Of a stretch of 10,101 bases of DNA, positions 2,080-10,101 are shown piece by piece. The translations under genes and the position numbers were made by a program. Numbering within the stretch: position 1 is the first letter of the stretch; every line of letters starts with the position of its first letter. Where the stretch lies: IMG/VR virus record IMGVR_UViG_2617270959_000008, one strand, 5' to 3'. This DNA comes from a virus. Taxonomy: Duplodnaviria; Heunggongvirae; Uroviricota; Caudoviricetes. The notes below the pieces were generated by a model. It had not been told where the DNA came from. It did not search any database and saw only the letters and a program-made list of their open reading frames with translations.

Positions 2080-2207
2080 GATAGGCTCCCCTCGTAAATG
2101 AGGTGATACACAAAATGAAACAAAAAAATACTGGTAGTACCAGCATCCTAAATTACAGATTCCATAACATGCTCAATGCTGCTAATGGCAAGAAAGGATG
2201 TTTTTAA

Positions 2208-2420
2208 ATGACAAGCGATAATCTGGACTCCAAGCCCACAATTGAAGATGTTGATTTCAAGCATTTGATCTGCGTCGCAGGAGGAATCATCGAGGATCTA
2301 AAAGGCCCATTTATATTCAAGGCTCCAGAAAATATTAGGCGATTACTTAATCATAAGGGAGTGAATGAAATAAGTAATCTCTCTCAAAAATTTAATGCAG
2401 ATTCTCCATCTTGCTATTAG
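2208..2420 (+). CDS. Hypothetical small protein (70 aa) in AT-rich island A
   Basis: ATG preceded by AAAGGA about 9 nt upstream; AT-rich; convergent with the 2497-3090 gene. No recognisable motif. Could be spurious. Confidence 0.4.
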   Translation: MTSDNLDSKPTIEDVDFKHLICVAGGIIEDLKGPFIFKAPENIRRLLNHKGVNEISNLSQKFNADSPSCY

Positions 2421-2496
2421 AGTTCAGCAGCAGGCACTCAGTGAATGCCTGCTGTAACGACTACTCCAATAATAATGGATGCTCTATGGATACATA

Positions 2497-3090
2497 CTAA
2501 AATATGGATGTTAAATAATTGCTAAGTCTTTTTGCATTCTTACAGAATGCCAAAGCATCTTCCTGAGTACATAAGAGCTTTCCTTGGGATATAGGCTTAA
2601 TAGACTCTCCTGTTTTTTCATAGAGCTTAACAATGTCACTAGAAATTTTGTTTGCAGATTGGACATTTTTCAAGGCAGCGATACCTGAAGCCCGCCCTAA
2701 AGATGTCCCGTTGATCTCAATCCCCTTTTTAGATGCAAGCGTTATAGCGGTTAACTCCAATTCGCGCCAAGCTGAAAGTACAGCAACATTAGGCTGAGTA
2801 CTAGCAAGACTCTCAAAAATATTGAAATTCTCAATGAGTTGTGTCGGCAGGACAGGATTTGTTCCAGGTAAATTTTTAATAACCTCTATACTTTTAGATT
2901 CTATTTCAAACATTTCTTTTTTAAATTTAATCTCATAGTCACCTAGCTTAACTGTATTAAGACGACCTAAAACCATTATTATTTCTTTTTTTAAAGTAAA
3001 AAAGACAATCAAACAAGCAAGAACAATAAATAAAACATTGCCTTCTTTAAGAAGCATCTCTATCCAGTAAAAAAAAGTATAGTCCGTCAT
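2497..3090 (-). CDS. Hypothetical membrane-anchored protein (197 aa, one N-terminal transmembrane helix); moron-type accessory gene of unknown function
   Basis: Long ORF in very AT-rich DNA, where stops are frequent by chance. A hydrophobic helix (NVLFIVLACLIVFFTL) near the N-terminus is followed by a soluble domain. It occupies the slot between the spanins and the HNH/terminase genes. A possible sigma70-like promoter lies upstream on the minus strand (GTGATA -35 at plus 3144-3149, 17-bp spacer, TATACT -10 at plus 3121-3126). Confidence 0.65.
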   Translation of the reverse strand: MTDYTFFYWIEMLLKEGNVLFIVLACLIVFFTLKKEIIMVLGRLNTVKLGDYEIKFKKEMFEIESKSIEVIKNLPGTNPVLPTQLIENFNIFESLASTQPNVAVLSAWRELELTAITLASKKGIEINGTSLGRASGIAALKNVQSANKISSDIVKLYEKTGESIKPISQGKLLCTQEDALAFCKNAKRLSNYLTSIF

Positions 3091-3284
3091 TTTCAGTTCT
3101 CAAATAGAAATAGTTCTCTCAGTATACGTATATTGAGCTCTGCTATCACTTAGTTTATACAACGTTATGCTGGCCACACGCTCGTAGTTGACGTGCATGT
3201 GGCTACTCGCTATTTTAGGTATTTTGGACATCTTCATTAATGCTGAACAGGCACTTCTTGCTGCGGTCTTTCCACTTTACTGCT

Positions 3285-3542
3285 TCATGGCTCACTCTTC
3301 TCTGCTTCAATTTTACGAATATCAGCCTTATCCCTATTACAGGCAGCCAGCACTGACAGCAGGCTCACGTTTAAATCCAGACTATCTTTGTAAGTCAGCG
3401 GATCAGGAATAGCTGGCTGTGGGGTTTCAGCGGTCAGGTTCGCCGGTAGTGGTACCGCCGGAACTGGCACGTAAATTGTCCGCGTACCGGCGCAGCCGCT
3501 CAGTTGCACGAGCAGGAACAAGACGGGAAGCGCAATCATCAT
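3285..3542 (-). CDS. o-spanin (Rz1-like outer-membrane lipoprotein), overlapping the 3' end of Rz in another frame
   Basis: Lipoprotein signal with lipobox LSGC followed by a proline-rich mature region (CAGTRTIYVPVPAVPLPANLTAETPQPAIPDP). It starts inside Rz and extends past the Rz stop (overlapped architecture). The start is ambiguous: ATG at 3542 or TTG at 3548; the ORF-track start at 3608 would give an implausibly long leader. Confidence 0.6.
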   Translation of the reverse strand: MMIALPVLFLLVQLSGCAGTRTIYVPVPAVPLPANLTAETPQPAIPDPLTYKDSLDLNVSLLSVLAACNRDKADIRKIEAEKSEP

Positions 3543-3819
3543 TCTCAACAGCCACTTTGATATCTTCCTGGGTTCTCTGTGACTCCAGTGCGATCTGCTG
3601 TTTTGCATGCTGGTTAGCCTCCAGAACTGTATTTACGATTTGTATTGATTGCAGGACGTTATTGGTAATGGCAGTTGCCGATTCAGCATTTTGTACAGCC
3701 TCATCAGCACGTTTCTTTTCATGCTGATATTTGCTGTAGTAGTAATTCGCTGACCAGATGAAAGAGCCAATGACAGTAAAGAAGAAAGCAGAGATAGCCA
3801 ACTTATAACTCAACTTCAT
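3427..3819 (-). CDS. i-spanin (Rz-like inner-membrane spanin)
   Basis: 130-aa ORF immediately after the endolysin. N-terminal transmembrane helix (LAISAFFFTVIGSFIW) followed by a charged, probably coiled-coil periplasmic region; contains the Rz1-like lipoprotein ORF in another frame. It overlaps the endolysin 3' end by 17 nt. Confidence 0.7.
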   Translation of the reverse strand: MKLSYKLAISAFFFTVIGSFIWSANYYYSKYQHEKKRADEAVQNAESATAITNNVLQSIQIVNTVLEANQHAKQQIALESQRTQEDIKVAVENDDCASRLVPARATERLRRYADNLRASSGGTTTGEPDR

Positions 3820-4279
3820 TTACCACCCCACCAGCCTCTTTAAATCGGGCAATCAGGTCACCGATTCTATGTTCATACTGACCGTAACCAGCGCCCGGCA
3901 GTGAAGCCCAGATATTGCTGCAACGGTCGATAGCCTGACGAATATCACCGCGATCAATCATCGGTAAAGCGCCACGCTCTTTAATCTGTTGCAGTGCCAC
4001 AGCGTCCTGGCTTTTCGGAGAGAAGTCTTTCAGGCCAAGCTGCTTACGATAGGAATCCCACCAACGGGAAAGAAGCTGGTAGCGCCCGGCTGCTGTTGAT
4101 TTGAGTTTGGGGTTTAGCGTGACAAGTTTGCGAGGGTGATCGGAGTAATCAGTAAATAGCTCTCCGCCTACAATGACGTCATAACCATGATTTCTGGTTT
4201 TCTGCCGTCCGTTATCCGTTCCTTCTGACCATGCCACCATATCGAGGAAAGCTTTACGCTGGGAATTTAGTACCTGCAT
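3803..4279 (-). CDS. R: Endolysin, lambda R-type lytic transglycosylase
   Basis: 158-aa product (…NSQRKAFLDM.AWSEGTDNGRQKTRNHGYDVIVGGELFTDYSDHPRKLVTLNPKLKST.AGRYQLLSRWWD.YRKQLGLKDFSPKSQDAVALQQIKERGALPMIDRGDIRQAIDRCSNIWASLPGAGYGQ…) is near-identical over most of its length to bacteriophage lambda R as I recall it. GGAG ribosome-binding site 6 nt upstream of the ATG. Confidence 0.92.
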   Translation of the reverse strand: MQVLNSQRKAFLDMVAWSEGTDNGRQKTRNHGYDVIVGGELFTDYSDHPRKLVTLNPKLKSTAAGRYQLLSRWWDSYRKQLGLKDFSPKSQDAVALQQIKERGALPMIDRGDIRQAIDRCSNIWASLPGAGYGQYEHRIGDLIARFKEAGGVVNEVEL

Positions 4280-4282
4280 AAA

Positions 4283-4609
4283 TTACTCCTTAGAGCCACC
4301 AAACTTATTACCGATTACTCTCATTGCAGCCCCACGAATAGCATCGACACCGATCAACCCAACGCCACCACCAATGGCAACAGAAAGCGATTTAGGCCAT
4401 CCGACATACTCAAGAGCGGATGCAAAAGTCAGCGTCAGAGCGCCACAGAGTAGAATTTCGAGTGTTTTTCGCTTCCAGCCACCACCACCGCCAAAATAGG
4501 CAATGCGCAAACCAGCCATAACGATCGACATAATCACTGCGCCCAGCGGTGTGTCTCCACGCCACCAGCTCTGGACCAACTCCAACCAGGTATTTGGGTT
4601 ATGAGGCAT
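4283..4609 (-). CDS. Holin, class I, lambda S family (divergent)
   Basis: 108-aa ORF immediately upstream of the endolysin. Three predicted transmembrane segments and a charged C-terminus (RVIGNKFGGSKE). The pattern resembles lambda S105 but with low identity. Confidence 0.8.
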   Translation of the reverse strand: MPHNPNTWLELVQSWWRGDTPLGAVIMSIVMAGLRIAYFGGGGGWKRKTLEILLCGALTLTFASALEYVGWPKSLSVAIGGGVGLIGVDAIRGAAMRVIGNKFGGSKE

Positions 4610-4761
4610 TTGTAGTTATCTCTCACCTCGCTGATACAGCAGGTGCAAATTGAGGGAACATCATGTACCGCAAATCAGAAGCGGAAACGTCAAAGAAGCC
4701 GAACCAATGGATAACTGCGGAATAGGCCAGAACCAACGAATCCCCAGCCCCAGAAACGACA

Positions 4762-4782
4762 AAACCCGCTCGACGCGGGTTT
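4762..4782 (-). terminator. Intrinsic-terminator-like hairpin, stronger on the minus strand, about 150 nt upstream of the holin
   Basis: 8-bp stem AAACCCGC (4762-4769) pairs with GCGGGTTT (4775-4782) around a 5-nt loop. On the minus-strand RNA the stem is followed by UUUUGUCGUUUCU. On the plus strand the downstream tract is weaker. Confidence 0.4.
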
Positions 4783-4827
4783 AAGCTGTGTGGCGAAGTA
4801 ACCACTCTTAACACGATACAATACTTT

Positions 4828-4856
4828 TTGCGTACGCGTTAAGATTTTTTTATAAT
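4828..4856 (+). promoter_or_regulatory. Candidate sigma70 promoter for the large island-B gene
   Basis: TTGCGT (4828-4833), 17-bp spacer, consensus TATAAT (4851-4856), about 70 nt upstream of the ATG at 4926. Plausible own promoter for the cargo gene, but AT-rich DNA yields such matches easily. Confidence 0.35.
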
Positions 4857-4925
4857 TACTTACCTTTCTCACACCAAATGTAAAAGCAATATTTTTTGAT
4901 AATCCTGTTGTTTAAAGGGAATAGC

Positions 4926-7900
4926 ATGAAATCAATTGTACACTTATCCGACTTACACTTATCAGACTCAAAAAAATATGGTTTTCACTGGAAGAAAGCC
5001 AAAGAACTGGTCACAGTATTAGTTAATGATATACATTCATTAAGTAAAGAAAACAACCTCCAGATAGATGCCATTTTTTTTACTGGGGATTTAACGTTTT
5101 CTGGAACCAAAGAGCAATTTCAACTATTTGATGAACATTTCCTCTCTCCACTTATTCAAAAGCTGAACATCAGTAAAAAAAACATTTTTATAACCCCAGG
5201 CAATCATGATGTGGACAGAAGTAAAGTTCATCCACTTGAAAAACAACTGCGAACTGGTTCGGACGAAAATTTCATATCATCATACTTTGATATGATAAAT
5301 AATGGAGAGTATTCATGGGAACGTCTCTACGAGTACTGTGAATATAATAAAACAATATTAGATCATCATTCTGATGTTGAACAATCTGGACGCATGATTA
5401 CATGCTTTAAAGTAACAAACAAATTATACGTCGTTAGCGTAAATAGCGCATGGTTAGCTATGGATGATAATGATATTGGTAACTTACGAATTACCCAAAA
5501 GCAAATTGATTTTATCAATCGTGCCAAAATACCTTCTGATGCAAAAATAATATTATTATGCCATCATCCTTTAGATTGGTTGAATAAGAATGATCGTGAC
5601 ATTTTTTCAACATTTATTGAAAAAAAAGTTTCAATGTTCTTTTTTGGTCATATGCATGATTTTAAACAAAAACTAGAATCTAGTTTTTGTGAAAACATCA
5701 CCCTCTTTTTGCAAGCAGGAACTTTGGATACTAGTGAAAATGTATCAGGCTATTCATTAATAAATTTTAATAGTTCAAATGTCATATCAGACGGAAGAAT
5801 TTTTTATAGAAAATATAATAAAGAAAAAACATGCTATGAACCATGGGAAGAAAGAGGAAATGGTGGTGTTTTTGATTTCACCACTGAGAAAACTCTAACT
5901 TTTGACTCTGAAAAATTTGCAACATTATCTAATGAGATTCTAGAGAAAACTGATAAGGATTTATTAATTAACATTGGAATCTCTGATGAAAAGAAAAAAA
6001 GTCTAAGAACTCTATTTACTGAACCAAATTTCCTTGAATTTGCTCTTGGAGCCATGCCTTCTATGGAGATTAAGTCCACACAAGAATTACTAGAAGGACG
6101 AAACAACCTTGTGATTGTAGGAAACCATAGCTCAGGTAAAACATCTCTTTTAAAATACCTATTCATTAAGAGTCTAGAAAAACAGGCCTGCAAAGACTTC
6201 AGTAACTTTGCATTTTTCTTAGATTTAAATGCAATTGAATTAAATAGATTAAATACAATTGTAAGCGCATTATGTACACAATATTTCAATGCAGATTCGA
6301 CCACATCTTTTGAAGAAAAAATTAAAAAAATGTTACATGAGGGAAGATGTGTTATATATATTGATAATCTGGACAATATAAATACAAAAGAACAATGTGT
6401 AATTTCTGATTTTTTTATAAAATTCAAAGAATGTAGATTTATCGTAACTGCTGGCTATAATAATTCAGATCTGGTAGTTAAAATATTATCAGATGAAAGC
6501 AAAGCTAAATTTCATGCAATTGCTATAGGTTCATTACGCAGATCTAATGTTCGCGATATTGTATCAAGATGGCACGACACAACATCACAAAATATAATAT
6601 ACAAAGAAATCACGCGAACAATCAACAATTCGCAACTTCCTCATAATTATTTTACATACTCAATGCTTTTAGCTATTTATGAAGTTGATCATGACGTTAA
6701 AGGAATATTAAGTGAGTCTGATATTATAGAAAACTTCATAGAAATTTTGCTTCGTAAACATTTTATGGATACTCCGCCTAATAAGCCACAATTTAAAGAA
6801 CTTCGGCATTTTCTTGGATATTTAGGATTTACATTATTCAAAAACAAATGTAATTTTATTTCAAATAATGATCTTCTGCAGACTGCAATAATTTTCAATA
6901 GAGATACCATGCATGATTATCAAGTAGAAGACTATATAAAACCATTAAAAGAATGTGGAATATTGAAAGAAGAGCTATGTAATGTGATTTTCTCGCAGCC
7001 TTGCTTTTTATACTATTCCATCGCTTATTTCATGAAGCATAACGAAGAGCTAAAGAAAGAAATTTTATCCGATAATAATTATCTACATCTACATAAAGTT
7101 ATTGAATACTATTCATCGCAGAACTCATCTAGTCTTGATTTATTATACTTACTTAAAAAGAAGACTAATGCAATCAAATCTTCTTTATCTGAACGAATGC
7201 TCGAAGATAAGGGAATAAATATTGAAGATATAAAGATTGAAGACTCTAATACTTTCTCTATTTTAGATATGGTATCAACCCAAGATGATTTCGAAAAAAA
7301 GATAGAATCACTCCGTGCAGATAGAGAAAAAGATGACGCGCGACTAGATGAATTATCACCTTTATCTGATAAAGATAAAAAAGCTAATATATCAAATGTT
7401 AGAGCGGAAGGTAATAATAATCTGTTACATGATCTTATTAACACTTTATCTCTTTATGCAAGGGTATTCCGTAGTACTGAATTATCTATGGAAAGAGAAA
7501 ATATATTAAATATATTTAATGACCTTGTAAAGGGTTATGTTTTTTACATGAAAGCGTCACTAGTACTAATGGATGATTCATTTGTTCTTCCAGTAATACT
7601 CCCTGCATTAGAAAAGAAAATGCAAGAGGATAAATTAACCGATAACGAAAGACAACGAGTTTTTGAAATGTTTAAACTAGTATTGTCTTTAGTTCGCTCA
7701 ATGATCCCAAATAACATACAGTTTATTATGAGCAATGACTTAAGCTCGAAAAAACCACGTATTGCAAACATTATTACTGAATCAAAAGACTCAAATAGCA
7801 ATCCTGTAGAAAAGGCTATTTTAACTTTCACCTTAATGGATATTAAAGATGAAATGGTTATACAATTAGCTAACGATTTAGCAAAGATACAAAACAAAGT

Positions 7901-8078
7901 TGTTCAAGAATCTCTTTTCTTCAAGATTAATCAAATTATAACAAGTAACTATGATTTAAAAAGAACTGAAGAAGAAGCATTGAAAGAGTTAGCAAAAAAC
8001 ATTGGCATTAAAAGAAAATTAATTCTCACACCCAAGATTAGTGATGCCTTTAATACGTTAAACCGCATAGGACATTAA
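4926..8078 (+). CDS. Large fusion protein (about 1050 aa): N-terminal SbcD/Mre11-like metallophosphoesterase domain + central P-loop NTPase (STAND/AAA-like spacing) + about 450-aa helical C-terminal region; candidate single-gene anti-phage defense protein
   Basis: Uninterrupted 3.15-kb ORF in about 27% G+C DNA. The ATG at 4926 has an AAGGGA ribosome-binding site; the ORF-track start at 4896 is a TTG. Metallophosphoesterase motifs are all present: IVHLSDLHLS (DxH, 4950-4958), FFTGDLTF (GD, 5085-5090), GNHD (5199-5210), CHH (5562-5570), GHMHD (5646-5660); the first three resemble SbcD/Mre11. Walker A is VGNHSSGKTS (6120-6146) and Walker B is CVIYIDNLD (6351-6374). Confidence 0.9.
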   Translation: MKSIVHLSDLHLSDSKKYGFHWKKAKELVTVLVNDIHSLSKENNLQIDAIFFTGDLTFSGTKEQFQLFDEHFLSPLIQKLNISKKNIFITPGNHDVDRSKVHPLEKQLRTGSDENFISSYFDMINNGEYSWERLYEYCEYNKTILDHHSDVEQSGRMITCFKVTNKLYVVSVNSAWLAMDDNDIGNLRITQKQIDFINRAKIPSDAKIILLCHHPLDWLNKNDRDIFSTFIEKKVSMFFFGHMHDFKQKLESSFCENITLFLQAGTLDTSENVSGYSLINFNSSNVISDGRIFYRKYNKEKTCYEPWEERGNGGVFDFTTEKTLTFDSEKFATLSNEILEKTDKDLLINIGISDEKKKSLRTLFTEPNFLEFALGAMPSMEIKSTQELLEGRNNLVIVGNHSSGKTSLLKYLFIKSLEKQACKDFSNFAFFLDLNAIELNRLNTIVSALCTQYFNADSTTSFEEKIKKMLHEGRCVIYIDNLDNINTKEQCVISDFFIKFKECRFIVTAGYNNSDLVVKILSDESKAKFHAIAIGSLRRSNVRDIVSRWHDTTSQNIIYKEITRTINNSQLPHNYFTYSMLLAIYEVDHDVKGILSESDIIENFIEILLRKHFMDTPPNKPQFKELRHFLGYLGFTLFKNKCNFISNNDLLQTAIIFNRDTMHDYQVEDYIKPLKECGILKEELCNVIFSQPCFLYYSIAYFMKHNEELKKEILSDNNYLHLHKVIEYYSSQNSSSLDLLYLLKKKTNAIKSSLSERMLEDKGINIEDIKIEDSNTFSILDMVSTQDDFEKKIESLRADREKDDARLDELSPLSDKDKKANISNVRAEGNNNLLHDLINTLSLYARVFRSTELSMERENILNIFNDLVKGYVFYMKASLVLMDDSFVLPVILPALEKKMQEDKLTDNERQRVFEMFKLVLSLVRSMIPNNIQFIMSNDLSSKKPRIANIITESKDSNSNPVEKAILTFTLMDIKDEMVIQLANDLAKIQNKVVQESLFFKINQIITSNYDLKRTEEEALKELAKNIGIKRKLILTPKISDAFNTLNRIGH

Positions 8079-8104
8079 AATGCCACTTTTTTGATATAAT
8101 TAAA

Positions 8105-8126
8105 AACCACCCGTAACAGGGTGGTT
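8105..8126. terminator. Hairpin terminator between convergent genes; stronger in the minus-strand direction (candidate tR'-like late terminator and/or terminator of the large plus-strand gene)
   Basis: Perfect 8-bp stem AACCACCC (8105-8112) pairs with GGGTGGTT (8119-8126) around the loop GTAACA. The minus-strand RNA has a downstream U-rich tract (UUUUAAUUAUAU). The plus strand has an A-tract before and a weak UUCUCU after the stem. The hairpin lies 27 nt after the stop of the large gene. Confidence 0.5.
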
Positions 8127-8181
8127 CTCTACCTCTGCTGCAATATATCTCAAATAATTAAAACGAGCAGGAATTTACCTA

Positions 8182-8361
8182 TCAAAAAACTTGACTACCG
8201 GAATTCGAATTTAAAACCCCATTAGTCTTTTTAGGTTTTGTCATTTTCAAATTAGCTTTCATACTACATGCCATAAAATATTGGGTAAGAAAAATGGTAT
8301 TTAAATAATTCCAAGAAGTAGTTTTATCATAAAAATAATTAATTCTTTGTTTCTTATTCAT
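8182..8361 (-). CDS. Hypothetical small protein (59 aa) with a strong Shine-Dalgarno sequence, between Q and the hairpin terminator
   Basis: ATG at 8361-8359 is preceded by AAGGAG with a 5-nt spacer; the ORF-track start is a GTG at 8367. Product MNKKQRINYFYDKTTSWNYLNTIFLTQYFMACSMKANLKMTKPKKTNGVLNSNSGSQVF is Lys/Asn-rich with one hydrophobic stretch. No recognisable homology. Confidence 0.4.
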   Translation of the reverse strand: MNKKQRINYFYDKTTSWNYLNTIFLTQYFMACSMKANLKMTKPKKTNGVLNSNSGSQVF

Positions 8362-8592
8362 GCACACTCCTTAGTAAAATATAGAAATAAAAGACAAATC
8401 ACTTATAAATGTCATGTTAAAAAAATTCTCATCATGATTATTGATGAGTGATTTTATATTATCAAAAAATTATATTATTAACAACTCTTGTTTATTACTC
8501 AACCAATACCAAAATCATTAGCCACGCATATATATTTTCAAACATATAAAAACAACACACAATATAAAATCCAGCCACAAAAACTCGCACTT

Positions 8593-8937
8593 CTATTTTA
8601 TGAAATAAAAACACCCTTCAATAAAACCTAAAGCAGTTTGCAATTCCTTTCTAATCGTACCGTCCGAACATTTTCGCTTCTTCGCAATAGTTCTAAGCGA
8701 AATACCAATAACAAAATGAGCTATAATTAGCTCATATTCCTCTGGTTTATACTTGCGCAACCGAGCCACACAACTATCTATCATAATGCCTTCGTCATCA
8801 TCACACTGAATCCGGGACTTTTTGCCATGAGGTAAAAGCCCCTTGAAGCCAGCGGCTACCGGTTGCCAATCCACACCACTGTTATCTGCTGCAGCCCATG
8901 CTCCCCAGCGGTCCAATACTTCATACATATCACGCAT
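8593..8937 (-). CDS. Late-gene antiterminator Q, QuuD-type
   Basis: Product MRDMYEVLDRWGAWAAADNSGVDWQPVAAGFKGLLPHGKKSRIQCDDDEGIMIDSCVARLRKYK... aligns with my recollection of E. coli DLP12 QuuD (MRDIQMVLERWGAWAA...AAGFKGL...CSDG...). The ATG at 8937 has a GGAGA ribosome-binding site 6 nt upstream; the ORF-track start at 8952 is a TTG. It lies immediately upstream of the lysis cassette region. Confidence 0.8.
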   Translation of the reverse strand: MRDMYEVLDRWGAWAAADNSGVDWQPVAAGFKGLLPHGKKSRIQCDDDEGIMIDSCVARLRKYKPEEYELIIAHFVIGISLRTIAKKRKCSDGTIRKELQTALGFIEGCFYFIK

Positions 8938-8954: not shown

Positions 8955-9542
8955 TCAGGCCAGCACGCCAATTGCCAGCGCACGATCGATAAAACGAAAT
9001 ATCAGCTCCAGCTGGGAGCCATACTTCTCTTCAAATGCCACGGTATCCGCATGCAGCTCGTCGTGATGCTTTCTGCACAAAGGCAACACAAAGAGGTCAT
9101 GCGCTTTTGTACCCATTCCACCCTGACCGTGGCCTATCAGGTGGTGGGGATCATCAGCAGGCTTTCCACAACATGCACACGGCTGTGTCTTAACCCAGCG
9201 CGTGTACTTTTCATTAACCCAGCGGTGACGTTTTGGGCGTAACATAAAAGACTCCGGCGACTCCGGCTCCACTTTCAGCGCCAGCACCTTTTTCGCTTTA
9301 TCCTGGATGATGCTGGTGGCAGGAACCGAAGGAACAAGGTCACTTTCCCGGGTGACAGACGGCACTACAGGCTTCGGTAATCTCAGTGCCTTACGGGCTG
9401 CACTTTCCGGTAAGGCATCCGCCAGGTCATTACGAACCAGCCACCAGCATAGTTCCGGCATTGTCACAACGTGACTATCATCAAAACCGAGATCCCGACG
9501 CACAACAGACAACATCCAGCGGGCACAGTTATCCGTTGCCAT
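8955..9542 (-). CDS. DUF968-like phage protein, C-terminal Cys/His-rich (HNH-like or zinc-binding) portion
   Basis: 195-aa ORF containing CACCGKPADDPHHLIGHGQGGMGTKAHDLFVLPLCRKHHDELH, which I recall as the conserved core of DUF968 proteins found next to Q in lambdoid prophages. Its stop lies 15 nt from the Q start. Confidence 0.7.
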   Translation of the reverse strand: MATDNCARWMLSVVRRDLGFDDSHVVTMPELCWWLVRNDLADALPESAARKALRLPKPVVPSVTRESDLVPSVPATSIIQDKAKKVLALKVEPESPESFMLRPKRHRWVNEKYTRWVKTQPCACCGKPADDPHHLIGHGQGGMGTKAHDLFVLPLCRKHHDELHADTVAFEEKYGSQLELIFRFIDRALAIGVLA

Positions 9543-9949
9543 TGATTCCAGCCATTCGTGAACTGATCGCGCAGCTGGTTATCGCAGTGCCAGCACAGAC
9601 GGATTGCGCCCGGCGCGTGTCGCATTGTGGTCATGTTCTCGCTGTGCCAGTCGGAATGAGGCCACTGGCAGCCTTTTTCACGAAGTAACCAGCTTTCAAG
9701 ACATTCCACTCCACCAGCACGACGGATCACTGCCTCATTGCGGAACACGGCCCGAACGGCAGGATCATCCGCCAGCGGTTGTGATGCTGCCGGAACGGCA
9801 CCACTGGCGAAAGATGAATAACGTTCCGGCTCAGGCTCCAGCAGGACACGCCCCTGCATAAACAGGGGCATCAGCTCTGAACCTGGTCTGAACAATACGA
9901 TCCCCATACGCGGGGCAATTTCAGGGGTCAGTAGTGCTCTCACGGTCAC
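9464..9949 (-). CDS. Hypothetical phage protein (161 aa); may be the N-terminal part of the DUF968-like gene separated by a frameshift, or an independent overlapping gene
   Basis: GTG start at 9949 preceded by a GAGGTGA ribosome-binding site that overlaps the stop of the upstream gene. Contains CWHCDNQ. It overlaps the 8955-9542 ORF by 79 nt in a different frame. Confidence 0.5.
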   Translation of the reverse strand: MTVRALLTPEIAPRMGIVLFRPGSELMPLFMQGRVLLEPEPERYSSFASGAVPAASQPLADDPAVRAVFRNEAVIRRAGGVECLESWLLREKGCQWPHSDWHSENMTTMRHAPGAIRLCWHCDNQLRDQFTNGWNQWQRITVPAGCCLLCVGISVLMIVTL

Positions 9950-9950
9950 C

Positions 9951-10100
9951 TCAATGAACGGTATCGAGCAGCTTTAACAGCTCAGGGAATCGGGATTCGA
10001 AGAAATGCGGCTGCGTCTCGCGCGGATTTGCAGGACTGGTGATGTTCTTGCCGAACATGCAGCCTTTCGCTGTCAGCGACCAGAATTTTTTGATGTTGTT
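9951..10100 (-). CDS. Hypothetical phage protein, C-terminal 49 codons only (gene begins beyond the window end)
   Basis: Minus-strand frame is open from the window edge to a TGA at 9953-9951 (…NNIKKFWSLTAKGCMFGKNITSPANPRETQPHFFESRFPELLKLLDTVH). The stop overlaps the ribosome-binding site of the next gene, suggesting translational coupling. Identity not recognised. Confidence 0.45.
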   Translation of the reverse strand, partial: NNIKKFWSLTAKGCMFGKNITSPANPRETQPHFFESRFPELLKLLDTVH

Positions 10101-10101
10101 A

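Follow-up and report, generated by a model that had tools for sequence, protein, structure and literature searches.

The window analysed here is a stretch of 10,101 nucleotides of viral DNA (Caudoviricetes) from the IMG/VR record IMGVR_UViG_2617270959_000008; a prophage of E. coli strain 300033, assigned to the SfV/SfII-like group, is 99.95% identical to it. Between the gene of the antiterminator Q and the holin gene, both on the minus strand, the window carries an AT-rich island with a large open reading frame (ORF) on the plus strand (Table 1). This cargo gene, the slot that holds it and the promoters predicted beside it are our subject. The gene at 4283-4609 is annotated 'phage holin, lambda family' in a near-identical record, and after it come endolysin, Rz/Rz1, an HNH endonuclease and a P27-family small terminase.

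Table 1. Features of the window around the Q-to-holin interval, in the order of their positions.
Feature	Position	Strand	Basis
Holin, lambda S family; first late gene past the late-promoter block	4283-4609	-	Pfam PF05106, E 5.7e-25
Candidate tR', putative intrinsic terminator of the late leader: stem 4782-4762, loop GTCGA, T-run to 4757	4757-4782	-	Terminator scan
Predicted late promoter pR': -35 TTAACG (4842-4837), 18-bp spacer, -10 TATCGT (4818-4813), start about G4805	4805-4842	-	Homology to Sp5, TAnnnT conservation
Invariant motif ACGCGTACGCAAAA in the pR' spacer, candidate Q-binding element (QBE)	4826-4839	-	Invariant in 38 variants
Predicted cargo promoter: -35 TTGCGT (4828-4833), 17-bp spacer, -10 TATAAT (4851-4856), start about 4863	4828-4856	+	Read from sequence
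Exchangeable AT-rich cargo island	4851-8592		Composition and homology breakpoints
Metallophosphatase-NACHT STAND NTPase, 1050 amino acids, PDC-S60/DS-8 family; candidate anti-phage defence gene	4926-8078	+	Pfam Metallophos and NACHT, PADLOC
Strong hairpin between small ORF and cargo; proper minus-strand terminator, followed by TTTTTAATT	8101-8125	-	Fold -17.0 kcal/mol, z -3.8
59-amino-acid ORF with strong Shine-Dalgarno sequence AAGGAG, between Q and cargo 3' end	8182-8361	-	Sequence; annotated coding sequence
Q antiterminator, Q21/Q933W family, 114 amino acids	8593-8937	-	PF06530, E 1.2e-45, profile positions 1-111 of 118

An exchangeable island downstream of Q

By sliding-window composition, G+C falls from about 50% to about 30% near 4850 and climbs back across 8590-8900. 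The island has 29.6% G+C, with 30.1% in the cargo ORF and 27.0% at 8079-8592, while its surroundings reach 49.2% in the lysis cassette (3285-4609), 46.9% at 4610-4850, 42.6% in Q and 54.6% in the DUF968 region (8955-10101). Comparison with relatives bearing other cargos placed the left homology breakpoint at 4848-4854 and the right one at 8591-8618, the final nine or so codons of Q being part of the exchanged segment. At this junction the cassettes give Q differing C-terminal tails, ...GFIEGCFYFIK in the window and ...GFIDGCICLILS at an empty site.

The window Q is 48% identical to QuuD of the K-12 prophage DLP12 and 44% identical to Q of the Stx2a phage Sp5 (Sakai), and gives a distant match to the Q21 chains of the cryo-EM structures 6P18/6JNX; the name Q21/Q933W for the family follows 10.1101/651190. 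We surveyed 80 viral contigs encoding close relatives of this Q, 76 of them with enough downstream sequence. The slot between Q and pR' was filled with low-G+C DNA in 73 of these 76 loci and empty in three (L084, L086 and L087). Relatives sharing the window Q type carry unrelated genes in the slot, which end 22-35 bp from the Q stop codon, and about 20 cargo classes were distinguished, nearly all convergent with Q.

Judged as a moron, the island has both a deviant composition (29.6% against about 50% G+C) and sites in relatives that are empty or alternatively filled. As to a promoter and terminator of its own, the promoter-like TTGCGT-17-TATAAT is backed position-specifically across cassettes, and a 3' hairpin with a poor U-tract lies on the cargo strand. 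From composition and comparison, the island is cargo that has been exchanged horizontally, in what is a known moron region of prophages. The original prediction, made from the sequence of the window, had described much of this: a drop in G+C between Q (8593-8937) and the holin (4283-4609), which composition and Pfam confirm; an AT-rich cargo in a lambdoid cargo site, which is borne out by some 20 unrelated cassettes and by empty sites in same-Q phages; and a cargo strand opposite to that of Q and the lysis genes, as the large plus-strand ORF agrees. It had proposed a comparison with relatives lacking the insert; three empty-site phages were found, and the two breakpoints given above came from relatives bearing other cargos. 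Of the limits it had set at about 4815 and 8590, the right one holds, and the left one moves to about 4851, because 4815 falls within a conserved regulatory block. Its G+C value of 27-28% is correct for the Q-proximal part and slightly low for the island as a whole.

The cargo gene and the defence cassettes of the slot

The cargo ORF starts at the ATG annotated in RefSeq (4926), with the ribosome-binding site AAGGGA. Pfam recognised a calcineurin-like metallophosphatase domain at the N-terminus and a NACHT NTPase domain in the centre, the latter at 27.4 bits against a cut-off of 26.7. The PADLOC model of PDC-S60 (PDLC05051) matched with an E-value of 1.3e-97, residues 14-1039 being aligned to profile positions 3-1001 of 1027. 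On the strength of these sequence matches, the gene is a new member of a known defence family. The metallophosphatase motifs (D9-x-H11, G54-D55, G92-N93-H94-D95, H213-H214 and G241-H242-x-H244) are invariant across 26 homologues whose identity ranges from 59% down to 23%, and the Walker A sequence is GNHSSGKT, with lysine K405.

DS-8 (working name MNAC, WP_032203427.1) is a validated single-gene E. coli defence system of the metallophosphatase-NACHT type, and its mutants D52A, N84A and K375A lose protection (DefensePredictor, PMC13092281). The comparison with DS-8 was made through its first 399 amino acids, taken from the supplement of that paper. BLASTP aligned this fragment to the cargo protein with an E-value of 5e-15 and 23% identity over 431 aligned residues; the three residues essential in DS-8 (D52, N84 and K375) align to D55, N93 and K405 of the cargo protein and are thus kept, and the fragment also matches PDLC05051 (E 2.6e-28). 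The two proteins share the domain order, with an N-terminal metallophosphatase, a central NACHT domain and a long helical C-terminus, and a length of about 1000-1050 amino acids. They differ in sequence, as the identity over the compared part shows, and the dependence of protection on both domains is established for DS-8 alone (PMC13092281).

A search of the PDB with the single cargo sequence returned no matches, and a family profile was needed. With it, the N-terminal part matched cyclic-nucleotide phosphodiesterases (Lmo2642 and Rv0805) and Mre11/SbcD nucleases, and the NTPase part matched NLRC4 and NLRP14. No model of the families Avs1-5 was among the PADLOC matches of the cargo protein at E <= 0.01; by its architecture, the protein appears to resemble Avs and bNACHT proteins in its working, though it is filed outside those families. 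If DS-8 and other bacterial NLR-like proteins are a guide, its C-terminal region would sense infection and the NACHT NTPase would oligomerise the protein, after which the N-terminal phosphoesterase would be activated.

Homologues of the cargo gene that are 57-64% identical occupy the same slot, in the same orientation, in prophages of Enterobacter, Rahnella and Citrobacter. Two of these loci, in Enterobacter and Rahnella, were inspected for the invariant motif (Table 1), and in both the motif and a TAnnnT hexamer lie just upstream of the cargo start. Further homologues were found at a prophage end in Proteus, antisense within the early nin region of a Cronobacter prophage, and at two non-phage chromosomal sites, one adjoining thrABC in Aeromonas and the other in a Pectobacterium island with a PIN toxin-antitoxin pair. 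Because homologues sit at other prophage and chromosomal sites, the cargo gene is considered to be mobile by itself.

Representative cassettes from the slots of the other surveyed phages matched the families Kiwa (KwaAB), PD-Lambda-5, PDC-S33, PDC-S42 and PDC-M53. Further cassettes encode a TIR-like ThsB with a caspase-like protein, or an NsnA/PD-T4-2-like protein with a cytosine methylase, and YejK/NA37 nucleoid-associated domains are present in three cassette classes; this domain has also been validated in defence by DefensePredictor (PMC13092281). Going by these family matches, the Q-to-pR' slot is a defence hotspot. Several cassettes had no Pfam or PADLOC match (4130-5693 of Stx2a_1447, L009; 5192-7058 of L005; and those of L033, L017, L048, L051 and L081), among them one within an Stx2a-converting phage and one that includes a STAS-like domain protein. 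Given their neighbours in the slot, these are candidate uncharacterised defence systems, and Q plus the block provides a simple search handle for more of them.

Defence hotspots are also carried by P2-like phages and P4-like satellites (Rousset et al., PMC9122126). Like those, the slot is a fixed position in a temperate phage at which unrelated low-G+C defence cassettes are swapped between conserved flanks. The phage family and the position are different, and two traits are particular to the window: one flank is a promoter whose spacer would provide the -35 of the cargo promoter, and the other junction falls within the final codons of a regulatory gene. Architecturally, the slot is a variation on known prophage hotspots: an exchangeable cassette separates the Q gene from its promoter, the junction falls at about -45 of pR', and there is a shared promoter core. 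A literature search found no description of a Q-to-pR' hotspot in the searchable literature, which is not proof of absence. Since prophage morons, defence hotspots and a validated member of the cargo family were already known, the island itself is ordinary in that sense; what the comparison contributes is the precise anatomy of a very common hotspot, with exchange between the final Q codons and about -45 of pR'.

Predicted promoters at the holin-side junction

A block of about 85 bp (4842-4757, minus strand) occurs downstream of Q in all 76 loci with enough sequence, at a distance from Q of 1.3-3.7 kb in 73 and of 11-15 bp in the three empty-site loci. In the window it is 3.75 kb from the Q stop codon, so the predicted pR' and QBE are present without adjoining Q. 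The block adjoins Q only in the empty-site relatives and in Sp5, where it overlaps the Q stop codon, the slot being empty. Directly past the Q stop codon no conserved sequence was detected among the relatives, and the block is the only Q-linked conserved sequence. Same-Q phages with other downstream genes (tRNAs in EC71; a methylase, tRNAs and stx2 in Stx2a_1447) have just 4761-4854 in common with the window on the holin side. The segment 4757-4610 lacks any linkage to Q: it differs in EC71 and in Stx2a phages of the same Q.

In an alignment of 38 distinct block variants, unrelated sequence gives way at a sharp boundary to CTAACG, the invariant ACGCGTACGCAAAA, a TAnnnT hexamer conserved at T1, A2 and T6 only, the invariant TTAAGAGTGGTTACTTCGCCACACAGCTTAAA, and a hairpin with a T-run whose stem and loop sequence varies by lineage and whose structure is kept in nearly all variants. 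The motif ACGCGTACGCAAAA occurs once in the window and is invariant in the Enterobacter and Rahnella prophages as well. It is altered with divergence of Q, reading ACGTACGTAAAA in DLP12 and ACGATCGTAAAA in Sp5. The QBE of lambda is located between -35 and -10. From its conservation and its co-variation with Q, we infer that ACGCGTACGCAAAA is a putative QBE; for phage 21, 10.1101/651190 gives positions -40 to -1 as sufficient.

The pR' start of Sp5 was mapped by differential RNA sequencing (dRNA-seq) and its leader 3' end, 258 nt downstream, by Term-seq; the leader carries an RNase E cut in GU|AUU at +173, and the promoter is constitutive, with a short, terminated leader (Sy et al., PMC7547250). 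The internal distances (258 nt and +173) have a single solution, in which the start is the G in TATCAT-GATAAGA-G, 8 nt past TATCAT, and the 3' end falls in the T-run of a second terminator. A promoter scan at this site gave TTTACG-16-TATCAT. Because the Sp5 start maps 8 nt past the homologous TATCAT, the TAnnnT hexamer is assigned as the -10 of pR', and because pR' of the window lies by homology at 4842-4805, late transcription is predicted to start between cargo and holin. Past the predicted pR' comes the layout of a terminator followed by late genes: the candidate tR' is at about +24 to +49 from the predicted start (hairpin +24 to +44; fold -14.3 kcal/mol, z -2.8), and holin, endolysin and Rz/Rz1 follow. 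Another candidate for pR', TTGGTG-17-TATAAA (4877-4849, minus strand), was rejected: it is unconserved between cargo classes, stands at varying distances from the invariant motif, and has no counterpart at the empty site.

The Sp5 leader has a hairpin with a run of seven T at +23 to +50 (1069-1096 of locus L106, against 1276-1304 for the second terminator), homologous to the only terminator of the window block. The published Sp5 RNA reaches the second terminator at +258, so that either the first hairpin is inefficient in vivo or short products went unreported.

The cassette of Sp5 and 933W, Q-pR'-StxS-tR'-stx, has in common with the window the Q family and a homologous promoter block with a TAnnnT -10, a conserved initial transcribed sequence and the first hairpin. 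It differs in its 258-nt leader with a second terminator and in the placement of its cargo: the Sp5 cargo (tRNAs, stx2) lies past tR', in sense and Q-dependent, whereas the window cargo lies upstream of pR', antisense and outside the predicted late transcript. In one empty-site phage (L084; IMG/VR UViG_2541047948_000004), a sense gene for a pertussis-toxin-S1-like ADP-ribosyltransferase (9519-10307) is directly past the block, with holin, endolysin and Rz after it, and thus occupies the classic stx position.

DLP12 is arranged as quuD, antisense nmpC and essD, with the block between the nmpC start and essD, away from quuD. Shared with the window are the Q family, a cargo convergent with Q and a homologous block between the cargo and the holin gene; the essD regulatory fragment of the literature ('-121 to +650') falls entirely within the equivalent nmpC-essD intergenic region. 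The repeat part of the motif is altered to ACGTACGT, which fits the 48% identity of its Q. Its cargo differs, being a porin gene disrupted by IS5 and no defence gene, and since nmpC starts about 370 bp away from the block, it does not use a promoter of the hybrid kind described below. The literature also puts an essD start about 350 bp upstream of the block. This published '+1', located here indirectly by mapping primers from PMC7918800, looks sigma-E-type and was rejected as pR'. The DLP12 block itself (6199-6280 of L090; MG1655 about 577,198-577,279) is an apparently intact pR'-like sequence, TTTACG-16-TATGCT, with a predicted start near 577,230 and a hairpin and T-run ending near 577,277, so that the predicted leader RNA would measure about 48 nt.

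What is commonly treated as a single cargo site, 'between Q and S', can thereby be divided into two positions. The position upstream of pR' is antisense and would be expressed in the lysogen, and holds defence genes and nmpC; that downstream of tR' is sense and Q-dependent, and holds stx, tRNAs and the pertussis-like toxin. The distinction matters for predicting the timing of prophage cargo expression. The analogy to nmpC and stx in the original prediction accordingly holds for nmpC, upstream of pR' like the window cargo, and fails for stx, which is in sense downstream of pR' and tR'.

Taken together, these observations make it probable that the island is a mobile metallophosphatase-NACHT defence cassette in a hotspot between the Q stop codon and the late-promoter module of Q, with the late start downstream of the cargo. 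The predicted pR' (about 4842-4805, minus strand), the putative Q-binding motif and the terminator at 4782-4757 would have remained beside the holin; Q would act across 3.7 kb, and late transcription would begin downstream of the cargo without crossing it. The antisense passage of Q-antiterminated late transcripts through about 3.5 kb of cargo, a central claim of the original prediction, is not supported, in view of the Q-linked block at 4842-4757, between cargo start and holin, which abuts Q in the empty-site phages and is homologous to the mapped pR' of Sp5. By homology, a separate late promoter is predicted directly upstream of the holin, a finding that, as an outcome of RNA-seq, had been named in advance as telling against antisense passage. 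The companion claim that the cargo has its own promoter most likely holds, the candidate being the predicted TTGCGT-17-TATAAT at 4828-4856.

Several points weigh against this interpretation. The predicted pR' is weak by consensus (-35 TTAACG with 3-4 of 6 matches, an 18-bp spacer and a -10 with 4 of 6), and the position of the transcription start site (TSS) is carried over by homology from Sp5, with its Q of 44% identity. The Sp5 start was itself placed by internal distances, the absolute coordinates in PMC7547250 differing from the RefSeq version used. In Sp5 the block hairpin is evidently read through to the second terminator 258 nt out, and unlike in Sp5, a second terminator before the holin was not found in the window. 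Neither a clear -10-like hexamer in the conserved +1 to +20 nor a clear sigma-dependent pause element downstream of the start was detected. For K-12, the accessible text of the 3'-end dataset (Term-seq and dRNA-seq supplements, PMC7815308) has no essD or nmpC entries. Defence activity of the window allele is presumed from a relative with 23% identity over the compared part, and the prophage may be defective, so that induction might never happen.

The predicted cargo -35, TTGCGT, sits within the pR' spacer and is the reverse complement of part of the invariant motif. Of 26 distinct cargo flanks, 54% had a hexamer matching TATAAT in at least 5 of 6 positions at 16-18 bp from TTGCGT, compared with 6% at control offsets in the same sequences, and the empty site has no -10-like hexamer at that spacing. 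This enrichment explains the faint 'T.TA..AAAA' conservation just outside the block and points to a hybrid promoter, with its -35 in the pR' spacer, as the likely driver of most cassettes. In the window, the cargo would be transcribed divergently from such a promoter, with its -10 from the cassette and its -35 from the spacer. The island most likely encodes an anti-phage STAND protein with its own promoter, which most likely serves expression in the lysogen.

Slot cassettes almost always face away from pR', and most often their predicted promoter overlaps it back-to-back. In the window, the predicted cargo promoter and pR' overlap in this way and their joint occupancy is probably impossible; if the invariant motif is the QBE, Q would cover the cargo -35 too. 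Either promoter competition or occlusion of the defence promoter by Q can now be put to the test. It is rather doubtful whether the Q-pR' junction in lambdoid phages of the Q21/Q933W family is a dedicated, insulated docking site for defence genes with a built-in off-switch, the cassette promoter borrowing its -35 from the pR' spacer and with it the putative QBE. Were this so, the lysogen would express the defence gene only in competition with a constitutively occupied pR', binding of Q at the cargo -35 would shut the gene at the onset of the prophage late phase, and the phage would be spared from its own abortive-infection cargo without antisense transcription.

On the Q side of the island, the 59-amino-acid ORF encodes a basic product that gave no family match, and it accompanies the cargo in EC71. 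A small ORF is in the matching position beside the cargo homologues of Citrobacter, Enterobacter and Rahnella, of which only that of Rahnella is detectably similar (39% identity over 46 amino acids, tblastn); pairwise comparison among the small ORFs of the other genera revealed no similarity. In Proteus a small ORF is 3' of the cargo homologue at its different locus, no ORF was found at this position in Aeromonas and Pectobacterium, and in Cronobacter there was an unrelated 50-amino-acid ORF only. The ORF may encode a partner of the STAND protein or a regulator of it, in co-transcription with Q, or its presence may be a coincidence. Between it and the cargo, the hairpin at 8125-8101 is a good terminator on the minus strand, and ordinary transcription from Q should therefore end before the cargo; on the plus strand it folds with -14.4 kcal/mol and is followed by UCUCUACC, a poor U-tract. 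The cargo transcript and the Q operon would end convergently at this shared hairpin.

Early transcripts that might read past Q are the only surviving form of the antisense idea. With pR' on the holin side as above, antiterminated transcripts of the early right operon would carry Q, pass the small ORF and the hairpin, and damp the cargo antisense after induction. The head-to-tail arrangement of Q and the small ORF, with the cargo 3' end convergent and a single strong hairpin between, is compatible with this, as is the Cronobacter homologue antisense inside the early nin region; in lambda, moreover, N-modified polymerase ignores intrinsic terminators of such a kind. Since the window yielded no N-like antitermination system and the hairpin is a good intrinsic terminator on the Q strand, we regard such damping as possible but on the unlikely side.

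It is improbable that the block at 4842-4757 is a mere terminator of the Q operon or a recombination scar of the cassette boundary, the late promoter lying elsewhere, for example at 4757-4610. A terminator does lie within the block, which stands at the cassette-exchange junction, and the sigma-E-type start published for DLP12 is well upstream of it; however, the Sp5 TSS maps within the homologous block, the conservation pattern of TAnnnT is of the -10 type, and 4757-4610 is not linked to Q. Even then, the late start would be on the holin side of the cargo.

More improbable still is a pR' immediately past Q, from which Q-modified polymerase would cross the cargo antisense for about 3.5 kb to the holin and silence it after induction. 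The canonical cassette (10.1101/651190) does have pR' directly after Q, and the 515-bp AT-rich stretch past the window Q contains promoter-like hexamers (8541-8514, 8502-8474 and 8465-8437) and a weak hairpin (8448-8428). Such sites, however, number 16 against the 21.5 expected from shuffles, which is no enrichment, and the stretch is specific to this cargo class and not common to other same-Q phages. Because the convergent cargo of other classes ends so close to the Q stop codon, there is no room for a promoter beside Q; the Q-linked block homologous to the mapped pR' lies towards the holin, and ahead of the cargo stands a strong terminator of the minus strand (8125-8101).

That the AT-rich segment belongs to the conserved backbone of the phage and serves one of its core functions, rather than being cargo, has next to no chance of being right: the same gene is beside Q in prophages of four genera, but the slot in same-Q phages holds some 20 unrelated cassettes or nothing, homologues occur outside prophages (Aeromonas and Pectobacterium), and the composition is 20-25 points below that of the flanks.

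Other features of the prophage

Scans of the window for tRNAs and Rfam families gave no matches. The DUF968 (YdfU-like) gene is broken into two overlapping minus-strand ORFs (8955-9542 and 9464-9949), where relatives have an intact gene of 329 amino acids. In the near-identical chromosome (745-4112 of L001), a stop codon interrupts the tail sheath gene, and tail genes come immediately after the large terminase, the head module being absent. The split DUF968 gene, the sheath stop and the absent head genes probably reflect either a defective prophage or assembly errors.

A second AT-rich island (2100-3150, 35.5% G+C) lies between Rz/Rz1 and the HNH-terminase module. Its minus-strand ORF at 2497-3090 encodes 197 amino acids with a predicted N-terminal membrane helix and matches PHROG 30030 (unknown function) only, with no match in Pfam or PADLOC; a plus-strand ORF at 2208-2420 (70 amino acids) matches PHROG 22590. 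One relative has, among its features at the place of the 197-amino-acid ORF, a DUF6236 protein. Tai defence genes have been reported 'upstream of the packaging module' (PMC11364771), a position to which the second island corresponds.

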